A DNA stretch of 61,822 bases, from the NCBI GenBank assembly GCA_026395335.1, contig JAPLYW010000015.1:1-61822 (forward strand), given 5' to 3'. Made by a program: the position numbers and the translations under genes. The stretch comes from Candidatus Shapirobacteria bacterium. Its GTDB lineage: Bacteria > Patescibacteriota > Microgenomatia > PFEM01 > JAPLYW01. Positions 27,762-54,825 of this stretch are shown piece by piece. A model generated the notes under the pieces. The model was not told the DNA's origin. It saw nothing but the letters and a program-made list of their open reading frames with translations, and made no database searches. Numbering within the stretch: the first letter of the stretch is position 1; each line of letters opens with the position of its first letter.

Positions 27762-27815
27762 GAACCTATCGAAGCGATAGAACCTTGTTTCTCTCCGGCG
27801 AAGCCGGATCGAAAT
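27759..27815 (+). repeat. Junction repeat, double-hairpin type (after map; its TAA is the map stop codon)
   Basis: TAAGAACC-TATCG-AAG-CGATA-GAACCTTGTTTCTC-TCCGGC-GAA-GCCGGA-TCGAAAT. Confidence 0.8.
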
Positions 27816-28107: not shown

Positions 28108-28166
28108 AATTCGAAATAAACAAGTTTGTTTCTCATAAAATTCGAAATAAACAAGTTTGTTTTTAA
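28107..28166 (+). repeat. Two tandem 30-nt hairpin-less junction-repeat units
   Basis: AAAATTCGAAATAAACAAGTTTGTTTCTCAT followed by AAAATTCGAAATAAACAAGTTTGTTTTTAAC, directly before the rpmJ ATG. Confidence 0.85.
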
Positions 28167-28170
28167 CAAA

Positions 28171-29695: not shown

Positions 29696-30622
29696 ATGAT
29701 CGAACCAATTTTTAATATTAAAAGTGAACAAGAAACTGCCAATTTCGGTAAATTTATTATAGAACCTTTAGAGGAAGGTTTTGGCCAAACTCTAGGGAAT
29801 TCTTTACGTCGTGTTCTTTTGGCGGGTTTACCTGGAGCTGCCATTACCCAGATAAAAATTAATGGAGTCAAACATAAATTCTCGACTCTGGAAGGTATGA
29901 GCCAGGACATTATTGACCTGATTTTAAATTTAAAACAGGTTAGATTTAAGTATGATGGTGAAAAACCAGTCAAACTTGAATTAGAAAAAACCGGACCTGG
30001 ACAAATTAAGGCTGGTGATATTAAAACTTCAGCAGTTATTGAAGTTGTTAATAAAGACTTGGTTCTAGCTGATTTGGCTGATAAAAAAAGCAAATTAAAG
30101 TTAGAAATGGTGGTTGAAAAAGGTTTTGGTTATTTACCGGCTGAAACTAAAAAAAGCGAAAAATTAGGTGTAATGTCGGTTGATGCCGCTTTTAGTCCGG
30201 TTAAAAGAGTTAATTATCAAGTTGAATCAACTCGTGTTGGTCAAAGAACCGATCTTGATAAATTAATTTTAGAGATTACAACTGATGGGACAATTAAACC
30301 GAAAGAGGCGTTAAAAGCTAGCGCTAAGATTTTAATTGCCTTTTTCAATCAAGTTATTCAACCTAAAAAGGTTAGTTTAAAAGAAGAAGTGAAGCCTCAA
30401 GCATATGAAGAGGCGACAAAACTAACTTTAGAAGAGTTGGATTTGCCAACGAGAATTGTTAATGCTTTGCGTAAGACCGGCTATGGAACAGTTGCCGATC
30501 TTTTAGCTATTAATCCTGATAACTTGGCCAGAATTAAAAATCTGGGCGAAAAATCAATTAAAACTGTCCAGGCAGCTTTAGCCAAAAAGAATATCAAGTG
30601 GGAACCTGGAGAAAAAAAATAA
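29696..30622 (+). CDS. rpoA: DNA-directed RNA polymerase subunit alpha
   Basis: FGKFIIEPLEEGFGQTLGNSLRRVLL; C-terminal domain ELDLPTRIVNALRKTGYGTVADL. Confidence 0.96.
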   Translation: MIEPIFNIKSEQETANFGKFIIEPLEEGFGQTLGNSLRRVLLAGLPGAAITQIKINGVKHKFSTLEGMSQDIIDLILNLKQVRFKYDGEKPVKLELEKTGPGQIKAGDIKTSAVIEVVNKDLVLADLADKKSKLKLEMVVEKGFGYLPAETKKSEKLGVMSVDAAFSPVKRVNYQVESTRVGQRTDLDKLILEITTDGTIKPKEALKASAKILIAFFNQVIQPKKVSLKEEVKPQAYEEATKLTLEELDLPTRIVNALRKTGYGTVADLLAINPDNLARIKNLGEKSIKTVQAALAKKNIKWEPGEKK

Positions 30623-30778
30623 ACAAGTTTGTTTTTCGTAAAACTCGAATAAACAAGTTTTTCTCTCCGCCAACTGGCGGATCGAAATAAACAAGTTTGT
30701 TTTTTAGCAAAATAATGTTTTTATCAAGATAAGTAAGCTTGTTTTCACAGGCTCAAATAAACAAGTTTTTTTAATAAA
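30619..30778 (+). repeat. Array of five junction-repeat units filling the rpoA-rplQ spacer
   Basis: Units start at 30619, 30649, 30687, 30729 (degenerate) and 30757 with ATAA(A/G)nAAG(T/C)TT. Unit 2 carries TCTCCGCC-AACT-GGCGGATCGAAAT. Confidence 0.8.
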
Positions 30779-31231
30779 ATGAGACATCAAATTAAAGGTA
30801 AAAAACTTTCGCGCAATTCATCTCAAAGAAAGGCTTTGTTTAAAGGTCTGATAAACTCTTTGTTTATTCATGGGGCGATTGAAACAACTGAGAGTAAAGC
30901 CAAAGCGATTAGAGGTTTGGTTGATAAATTAATTACTAAAGGGAAAAAAGGTACTCTTCATTCTCGAAGATTAATTGGTGCTTTTTTACAGAACAAAAAA
31001 GTTGTTAATAAAATTGTTGATGAATTTGGGCCTCTTTTTGTTAAAAGAAGCAGTGGTTTCAGCCGGATGATTCGTTTAGGAAAAAGACGGGGAGATGACG
31101 CAATGATGGTTAAGCTGGAACTAATAGAAAAACCAGTAGTTAAAGTTGTAGAAGAAAAAGCTATTGTTACTAAAGCTAAAGATAAAAAGGAACAACCAGT
31201 TACTAAAATTGTAAAAACTAAGAAGAAATAA
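30779..31231 (+). CDS. rplQ: 50S ribosomal protein L17 with K-rich tail
   Basis: MRHQIKGKKLSRNSSQRKALFKGL, ETTESKAKAIRGLVDKLIT. Confidence 0.95.
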   Translation: MRHQIKGKKLSRNSSQRKALFKGLINSLFIHGAIETTESKAKAIRGLVDKLITKGKKGTLHSRRLIGAFLQNKKVVNKIVDEFGPLFVKRSSGFSRMIRLGKRRGDDAMMVKLELIEKPVVKVVEEKAIVTKAKDKKEQPVTKIVKTKKK

Positions 31232-31272
31232 GAACCTGCCTACGGCAGAACCTTGTTTTTCGAAGACTCAAA
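31229..31272 (+). repeat. Junction repeat, hairpin type (its TAA is the rplQ stop codon; ends at rplM ATG)
   Basis: TAAGAACC-TGCC-TAC-GGCA-GAACCTTGTTTTTCG-AAGACTCAAA-ATG. Confidence 0.8.
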
Positions 31273-44206: not shown

Positions 44207-44216
44207 GTATTAAAAA

Positions 44217-44520
44217 GCCTAGAAAGCTCATAAGCCAGATTTTGTTTAAACAGTCATCTATCTTTGCCCTCGAACATCGACACTCGGAAAAGACTCCTAA
44301 TAGCGTGTCAGTCGGAGGTTGCAGCGGGGAGGGTTACCTCGTTTCACCCCCTCCATAGCTTTAGGCGACGGAGGGACTCGTCTCTGTGGCCCTATCTAGT
44401 TCCAACTCACCAGGGGGTTGGAATGCCGTTTTGCAACGGCCACCCTGTCTTTTAGCTGTCTGGACTTTCCTCCCGCCTAAATATTTAATTTTTGGCGGGC
44501 AACTGTCCGGCTTTCTAGGC
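44217..44520 (-). ncRNA. rnpB: RNase P RNA (bacterial type A-like, compact)
   Basis: Minus strand contains GGGAGGAAAGTCCAGACAGC (P4 5' strand region) and ACAAAATCTGGCTTATGAGC (P4 3' strand). The P1 helix GCCTAGAAAGC/GCTTTCTAGGC closes the molecule. It is a GC-rich island in AT-rich DNA with a U-run after the 3' end. Confidence 0.88.
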
Positions 44521-54770: not shown

Positions 54771-54825
54771 TTTCGATCCGCCAACTGGCGGAGAGAAACA
54801 AGGTTCTGCCGAAGGCAGATTCTTA
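54771..54825 (-). repeat. Junction repeat, double-hairpin type, minus strand (its TAA is the cca stop codon)
   Basis: Minus strand reads TAAGAATC-TGCC-TTC-GGCA-GAACCTTGTTTCTC-TCCGCC-AGTT-GGCGGA-TCGAAA. Confidence 0.8.

Follow-up and report, generated by a model that had tools for sequence, protein, structure and literature searches.

Miniature junction repeats stacked head to tail between rpoA and rplQ in a Candidatus Shapirobacteria genome, probably as a lineage-specific insertion

Why are rpoA and rplQ, which overlap or lie within 6 nt of each other in about 30 of 41 metagenomic and genomic relatives, separated by 156 nt in a Candidatus Shapirobacteria genome? The spacer lies in a window of 61,822 nt, the whole of contig JAPLYW010000015.1 (assembly GCA_026395335.1), which is contig C12 of a 457-kb metagenome-assembled genome (MAG) of the candidate phyla radiation (CPR; Patescibacteria) with 30 contigs, 34% G+C and 93.6% completeness. 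We refer to this genome as G000, to other genomes of the same class by G-numbers, to contigs by C-numbers and to the loci or contigs compared by L-numbers. Our analysis indicates that the spacer is probably a lineage-specific insertion, a head-to-tail array of six dispersed miniature junction repeats, and that it is more readily seen as selfish or neutral DNA that is tolerated than as a dedicated regulator.

The rpoA stop codon ends at 30622 and rplQ, which encodes ribosomal protein L17, starts at 30779, with both genes confirmed by Pfam. The 160 nt at 30619-30778 resolve into six units of 17-38 nt, all in one orientation:

29696-30622, forward strand: rpoA, RNA polymerase alpha, 308 aa (Pfam RNA_pol_A_bac, RNA_pol_L and RNA_pol_A_CTD)
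30619-30648, forward strand: unit 1, 30 nt, ATAAACAAGTTTGTTTTTCGTAAAACTCGA, a palindromic head with a plain 'type i' tail
30649-30686, forward strand: unit 2, 38 nt, the head with a 'type ii' tail that carries a GC hairpin (inverted repeat)
30687-30711, forward strand: unit 3, 25 nt, ATAAACAAGTTTGTTTTTTAGCAAA
30712-30728, forward strand: unit 4, 17 nt, the short form ATAATGTTTTTATCAAG
30729-30756, forward strand: unit 5, 28 nt, degenerate, ATAAGTAAGCTTGTTTTCACAGGCTCAA, with the hairpin AGCTTGT-TTTC-ACAGGCT
30757-30778, forward strand: unit 6, 22 nt, ATAAACAAGTTTTTTTAATAAA, adjoining the rplQ ATG
30779-31231, forward strand: rplQ, ribosomal protein L17, 150 aa (Pfam Ribosomal_L17)

Every unit opens with ATAA and closes with RA(A/G), and the TAA within the ATAA head of unit 1 is itself the rpoA stop codon (30620-30622). 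A first-pass annotation of the window had described five units at this position. The array it saw is real and its sequence is as given there, including the degenerate head ATAAGTAAGCTTGTTT of unit 5 at 30729, but its 42-nt third unit is better divided into ATAAACAAGTTTGTTTTTTAGCAAA and the short ATAATGTTTTTATCAAG, since arrays of a sister species contain that very pair. Unit 4 corresponds to the long form without ACAAGTT, that is, without one arm of the head palindrome. The unit ends that had been listed, TCGAAT, TCGAAAT and CTCAAAT, fit three of the six units and the other three differ: in order, the tails read CTCGAAT, ATCGAAAT, GCAAAAT, CAAGAT, CTCAAAT and TAAAAT. The ATG of unit 4 (30715) also starts a five-codon mini open reading frame, MFLSR (30715-30732), which stops at the TAA of unit 5.

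The 14-nt head is palindromic almost throughout and, in AAGCTT variants, fully so. Stable folds are limited to two units. In unit 2 the hairpin TCCGCC (30666-30671)-AACT-GGCGGA (30676-30681) is enclosed by an outer stem of TTTC (30660-30663) and GAAA (30684-30687) and folds at -13.3 kcal/mol (z-score -3.9), and unit 5 folds at -7.2 kcal/mol (z -2.8). None of units 1, 3, 4 and 6 folds more strongly than -2.6 kcal/mol, and their z stays above -1.1, with unit 1 at -2.6 kcal/mol (z -0.3) and unit 6, an A/U-rich, unstructured leader that lacks a Shine-Dalgarno sequence, at -1.2 kcal/mol. Around 13 hairpins of the unit 2 type occur in the genome. The module had been reported at two further places in the window: the copy at 54771-54795 does have the stem of unit 2, with the complement as its loop, whereas 27794-27808 carries a covarying variant, TCCGGC-GAA-GCCGGA, and not the TCCGCC-AACT-GGCGGA of unit 2.

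The 12-mer ATAAACAAGTTT has six exact matches in the window, against 0.08 ± 0.27 expected from 100 dinucleotide shuffles of the window, none of which reached six. Four of the matches lie in the rpoA-rplQ spacer (30619, 30649, 30687 and 30757) and two, at 28116 and 28147, between infA and rpmJ. We also considered whether such an array could be a collapsed or expanded repeat in the assembly. Assemblies do break on this family, in that seven Logan contigs with this L17 (L031-L037) all end 26-43 nt past the L17 stop codon, inside a further cassette at 31232-31272. The exact L17 protein is found on 10 contigs from other assemblies, however, and seven independent Logan assemblies, from different runs and at least two studies, give the identical 156-nt spacer within rpoA-L17 contigs, matching the window at 100% identity along a 211-nt stretch that covers the array. 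As all units differ from each other they cannot be collapsed copies, and given the identity across seven independent assemblies we regard an assembly artefact as having negligible probability.

Are the units particular to this junction? Two further features of the window belong to the same family:

28116-28170, forward strand: a sister array whose two units, 31 and 24 nt long, are of the same subfamily and fill the spacer between infA and rpmJ (IF-1 and L36 by Pfam; Tandem Repeats Finder period 31, 2.2 copies)
31232-31272, forward strand: a hairpin-type cassette between rplQ and rplM, TAAGAACC-CTGCCTACGGCAG-AACCTTGTTTTTCGAAGACTCAAA-ATG, the canonical form, given for comparison

The most repeated 11-mers of the genome are pieces of one cassette, which consists of (A)TAAGAACC, a variable covarying hairpin and AGAACCTTGTTT(T/C)TCGAAGACTC(A/G)AA, followed by ATG; in a second form, the tail is swapped for CTC-TCCGCC-AGCT-GGCGGA-TC(A/G)AA. 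The common plan of the family is an (A)TAA head and a YCRAA(A)T tail. The main subfamily has the head GAACC-hairpin-GAACCTTGTTT, and the units between rpoA and rplQ represent a hairpin-less subfamily whose usual head is the near-palindrome AAACAAG(Y)TTGTTT. The 457 kb of G000 hold about 38 AACCTTGTT cassettes and about 15 AACAAG-type units, most of which connect a TAA with an ATG and are oriented like the genes. Away from this junction, the same 30-nt unit leads from a TAA into a real ATG, for example at C18 5493, C5 16855 and C5 5073, which bears out the earlier suggestion that the unit is by nature a stop/start junction cassette. Other arrays lie on C30 (6766-6900, four to five units), C18 (three units) and C2, C17 and C27 (two units each).

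Within the tails, the pyrimidine and the purine of the UUUY...RAAA pattern are associated in a manner that fits a conserved base pair: the counts in G000 are T-A 14, C-G 11, C-A 6 and T-G 1 (p 0.001), and the association recurs in other genomes with p 1.5e-8, a statistic that related copies inflate. This hints at a recognised stem, in DNA or in RNA.

The family extends well beyond this genome. Exact 15-mers of both subfamilies were found in 11-12 of the 41 genomes of the class, all of them MAGs and incomplete, with 0 to 26 copies each, whereas the reversed control patterns gave one match over all 41 genomes for one pattern and zero for the other. Tandem copies before genes in other genera include three 47-nt hairpin cassettes in G016 (C6:3850-4150, L137), two of them identical, and four 24-nt AACAAG-type units with the same tail in G002 (C38:1300-1520, L154).

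What does the junction look like without an array? That rpoA and rplQ are normally adjacent, as had been remarked, is borne out in family- and order-level relatives. The two genes overlap by ATGA in three genomes of the same family (G001, G002 and G003) and are separated by 2 nt in G011, and the rpoA C-terminus of G000, ...WEPGEKK*, aligns with that of relatives whose rpoA closes in the ATGA overlap. The infA-rpmJ gap is likewise 0-8 nt in most relatives examined, and about 33 nt, with a degenerate unit, in G005. A single hairpin-type cassette sits at rpoA/rplQ in G016, which belongs to another family of the order, and its relative G022 retains a GTGA overlap there.

The most informative comparison is with a sister species that is about 75% identical to G000 in rpoA and L17, and whose own strains are 98-100% identical to each other over roughly 490 nt of rpoA and 334 nt of L17. 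At the rpoA/rplQ junction its contigs present the following states:

L048: an empty site, GAGAAAAAATGAGACAT
L043 and L044: one 17-nt unit at the exact point of the empty site
L050: five units
L051: eight units, among which a block of two units (52 nt) recurs about 2.5 times

The boundaries are precise: the filled site reads GAGAAAAAAT[AATTTTTCTATCGAAAT]GAGACAT against the empty GAGAAAAAATGAGACAT, and the inserted unit (L043) is foreign to the sequence of the empty site (L048). The rpsM/rpsK junction of the same species is polymorphic as well, with an ATGA overlap in L051 (400-403), three head-to-tail units in L043 and L044, and in L048 a hairpin cassette together with one unit. Unit number is thus polymorphic in close relatives, as the first-pass annotation had proposed to check, and the series of 0, 1, 5 and 8 units, together with the states of rpsM/rpsK and of G016 and G022, leads us to conclude that stop/start overlaps are invaded repeatedly and that arrays change at the strain level. 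Other differences are seen around these junctions. In L050, short units comparable to unit 4 make mini open reading frames that overlap the rpoA stop (TAATG) and the rplQ start (ATGA). The L17 tail, about 600 nt after the start, differs between L050/L051 and L048/L043 by a 30-nt in-frame indel rich in Lys and Glu, in strains that are otherwise 98-100% identical. In L052, rpoA (around 500-520) ends in GGAGACTCAAAATAA, and its last codons resemble the cassette tail GACTCAAAAT, as if the repeat had replaced the end of the gene.

Could the array have arisen in place, by replication slippage that duplicated the local rpoA stop and rplQ start, as the first-pass annotation had it? Local duplication does occur, as seen in the higher-order 52-nt repeat of L051, the identical 47-nt tandem units on C6 of G016 and the shared tails on C38 of G002. 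The six units of G000, however, differ in subtype and in length, and each is closest to a copy elsewhere, on other contigs, in arrays of other species or, for unit 6, between infA and rpmJ, with best matches at 80-96% identity, and never to the adjacent unit. Unit 1 is nearest to C18 5493 and to units of L050 and L051 (90%), and unit 2 to unit b on C17 (82%). For unit 3, identity is 96% both with the lone unit of L052 and with units present in L050 and L051, and 92% with unit 2 of infA-rpmJ. Unit 4 is 71-76% alike to the short forms in L043, L050 and L051, unit 5 is nearest to C5 16855 and C5 5073 (80%), and unit 6 to unit 2 of infA-rpmJ (88%). Moreover, the first inserted unit of the sister species does not derive from the empty-site sequence, and the same units occur at unrelated junctions. 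Because of the foreign insert and the nearest-copy comparison, slippage as the only mechanism is contradicted, and we hold it to be highly improbable.

The array is better described as a mosaic, since the nearest copy of each unit lies elsewhere, and on balance we favour its having been seeded by repeated insertion between AAT and G of the stop/start overlap and then reshaped by local duplication and deletion. A unit inserted between the T and the G of an AATGA overlap would provide a new in-frame TAA, in the frame of the old TGA, for the upstream gene and would rebuild the ATG of the downstream gene; junctions would fill with units because both flanking genes, here essential ones, survive the insertion. 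The 3' end of a unit would recreate a site of the form (A)AAT followed by R, so that later units could stack in the same orientation, and the resulting arrays would then be altered by unequal recombination or slippage and by the loss of one palindrome arm.

Such an insertion bears on translation, as termination-reinitiation coupling occurs at ATGA overlaps. Relatives keep this overlap between rpoA and rplQ, and the units preserve its logic, ending in AA-ATG and starting with TAA; in G000, in contrast, the genes are 156 nt apart, and direct translational coupling between them has probably been lost. In its place there would be a transcribed, mostly unstructured, A/U-rich spacer with one GC hairpin. 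We infer that rplQ would be co-transcribed with rpoA and would start on the leader provided by the last unit, independently of the ancestral coupling. Shine-Dalgarno signals are weak throughout the genome, and the 16S gene, sought for a check of the anti-Shine-Dalgarno sequence, was not found in the MAG.

A different view assigns the array a function in cis, as a regulatory module of rplQ or the alpha operon, with the palindromic heads AAACAAGYTTGTTT as iterated operators for a dimeric DNA-binding protein, or with the units acting as an internal promoter or, in the RNA, as a leader, attenuator or processing site, and so determining L17 levels. The near-perfect palindromic head, the conservation of unit sequence between lineages, the base-pair-like association in the tails and a whole-spacer RNA fold with z -3.4 against shuffles are all in keeping with this. 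Nevertheless, relatives have no spacer and therefore no conserved regulation at this junction, unit number and order vary within one species, and the same units precede unrelated genes. Direct searches for signals gave little: no intrinsic terminator (GC hairpin plus T-run) lies inside 30623-30778, no Rfam family matches the spacer, and the one weak sigma-70 promoter match in it (9/12, TAAACA-17-AATAAT; -35 and -10 hexamers spaced 16-18 nt) is accompanied by a regional count equal to the shuffle expectation. We attribute the whole-spacer fold to the repeated palindromes, as four of the six units have no stable fold alone, and do not interpret it as a structured RNA; a ribosomal-protein leader or known cis-regulatory RNA was likewise set aside, given the absence of a match to a curated family and the orthologous junctions that have no spacer. 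A dedicated regulatory role thus appears very unlikely.

If the units have been inserted, what could have moved them? G000 encodes three RAYT-like genes (RAYT stands for a tyrosine transposase associated with repetitive extragenic palindromes, or REPs) of the Y1 (HUH) type, of 224-260 aa, at C15 5035-5721 (reverse strand), C7 11849-12523 (reverse) and C17 2151-2933 (forward; loci L091-L093). They score 33-51 bits against NCBIfam REP_Tyr_transpos, under the 80-bit cut-off, and each is flanked by a hairpin of its own (AAGGCCNGGCCTT, CACATCGGATGTG and AAGGTGGCACCTT) that is present only at its locus. Across the class, Y1 genes are found in 26 of 41 genomes, with up to 13 copies, and the cassette 15-mer in 12 of 41. 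Repeat copies against Y1 genes number 20 to 0 in G016, 14 to 0 in G022 and 2 to 13 in G038, in MAGs that are incomplete. The private flanking hairpins, the sub-threshold scores and the lack of co-occurrence with repeat load together speak against mobilisation by these RAYT-like proteins.

Two other routes were rejected. A single RVT_1 reverse transcriptase of 337 aa is encoded at C7 14606-15619, just 3' of the gene for a 420-aa protein with a Gly/Ser/Trp-rich C-terminus (...FGGGWSDSCVACGSRGSAWYRAPLG...), which we take to be the variable region of a diversity-generating retroelement; the reverse transcriptase would then be part of that retroelement and unrelated to the cassettes. This retroelement-like cassette (C7:13033-15619, next to L092) lies 0.5 kb from a RAYT-like gene, and both are enclosed by copies of the hairpin CACATCGGATGTG (C7 11827, 12578 and 15675). 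A TIGR-Tas or CRISPR-like array was discarded because the genome has no match to the Nop domain and the units, of 17-38 nt, form a small repertoire that also occurs singly at junctions.

An origin that needs no transposase is microhomology-mediated template switching or short-patch gene conversion from other cassettes, through the shared A-rich ...AAAT and ...AAAATG, with arrays growing by copy-choice errors. All boundaries carry a direct repeat of 3-5 nt (AAT or AAAT) that could serve equally as microhomology, no transposase co-occurs with the repeats, truncated and recombinant units (long against short by ACAAGTT, swapped tails) are what such a process would produce, and foldless units of 17 nt look too small to serve as recognition sites for a transposase. 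The patchy presence of the same exact 15-mers across orders of the class, however, is more readily accounted for by an element that passes between lineages and multiplies in bursts, and hairpin subfamilies with covarying stems suggest a recognised structure. We therefore consider template switching a possible but rather doubtful account of the array.

Insertion of dispersed repeats, our preferred reading, also has several observations to contend with. No mobilising enzyme has been linked to the units, with the Y1 genes carrying private hairpins and their presence not tracking repeat load, and no variation in length or movement is seen in the strain itself, where the seven assemblies are identical, although contigs hide rare variants. 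Units are nearly identical between lineages whose flanking genes are about 75% identical; this conservation and the Y...R pairing of the tails could reflect selection for a host function and not constraints of mobility, and a role exerted on the transcript would also agree with the fact that the units strictly follow gene orientation. Furthermore, the pair of an AGCAAA-type unit followed by the short ATAATGTTT is shared at this junction by two lineages that have closer relatives with no array, a pattern that random independent insertion does not predict.

How do the cassettes relate to known repeat systems? REP elements and bacterial interspersed mosaic elements (BIMEs) form clusters in Proteobacteria that are associated with RAYT (Y1 HUH) transposases (PMC2817692, PMC3116915). 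Like these, the cassettes are short, abundant and mostly extragenic, some have hairpins with covarying stems, the unit number varies between strains and the genome encodes RAYT-like Y1 proteins. The differences are nonetheless substantial. The GT(A/G)G tetranucleotide head of REPs (PMC2817692) is absent, with (A)TAA(A/G)CAAG or TAAGAACC heading all copies listed; a stem-loop comparable to their imperfect palindrome of 20-40 bp is present only in units 2 and 5; and the RAYT-like genes are flanked by private hairpins instead of two inverted copies of the dispersed repeat, with no co-occurrence of transposase and repeat across the 41 genomes. Whereas orientation alternates in BIMEs, all arrays here run head to tail in one orientation, and bringing a stop codon and rebuilding a start codon at gene overlaps is not a property of REPs.

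Pneumococcal BOX elements, built as boxA-boxB(n)-boxC with a variable number of boxB modules (PMC3049150), offer another parallel, in that they are modular, contain strain-variable tandem modules, lie in transcribed intergenic regions and have an uncertain mobilising enzyme. Their terminal modules form inverted ends, however, whereas the arrays here start and end with ordinary self-contained units and have no terminal inverted repeats; BOX elements are also not tied to stop/start overlaps, and their sequences and hosts are unrelated. Miniature inverted-repeat transposable elements differ in that the ends of the units (ATAAAC... and ...CTCGAAAT) are not inverted copies of each other, and the only direct repeat at the boundaries, 3-4 nt of AAT or AAAT, may be either a duplication or the end of the element itself.

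IS200/IS605 insertion sequences insert in an orientation-specific manner 3' of a short fixed sequence without duplicating it, carry subterminal hairpins at both ends and use a Y1 transposase. The cassettes resemble them in that the insertions follow (A/G)AAT with no clear target duplication, and units ending in AAT or AAAT would allow head-to-tail stacking. Hairpins are found in some subfamilies only, though, and the hairpins that these enzymes need at the left and right ends are missing from units of 17-30 nt. No cognate Y1 gene is linked to the units, given the private hairpins and the lack of co-occurrence, and the apparent target may be microhomology or a filter imposed by selection. In our literature search we found no paper linking Patescibacteria or Microgenomates with repetitive extragenic elements. 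Elsewhere in the window, the sole Rfam match over the gathering score is a bacterial RNase P RNA of class A (44215-44518, reverse strand), and ARAGORN predicted no tRNA in the window.

CPR bacteria are considered extremely streamlined, and still this 457-kb genome tolerates stacks of repeats in its alpha and spc ribosomal operons, which related strains quickly gain and lose exactly at the overlaps that normally couple translation. In practical terms, such repeats break short-read assemblies of CPR genomes and create spurious 'intergenic regulatory' signals, and annotators should recognise them. If the units are mobile, they would be a compact example of an element made harmless at gene junctions, because the unit itself supplies a stop codon and restores the start. 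More speculatively, and in our opinion unlikely, the junction cassettes may represent an undescribed mobile or self-copying CPR element that specifically recognises AATGA overlaps of co-translated genes without a transposase of a known family and builds hypervariable head-to-tail arrays within highly conserved operons; with translational coupling broken, the length of the array may then tune the amount of the downstream protein, here L17, strain by strain.

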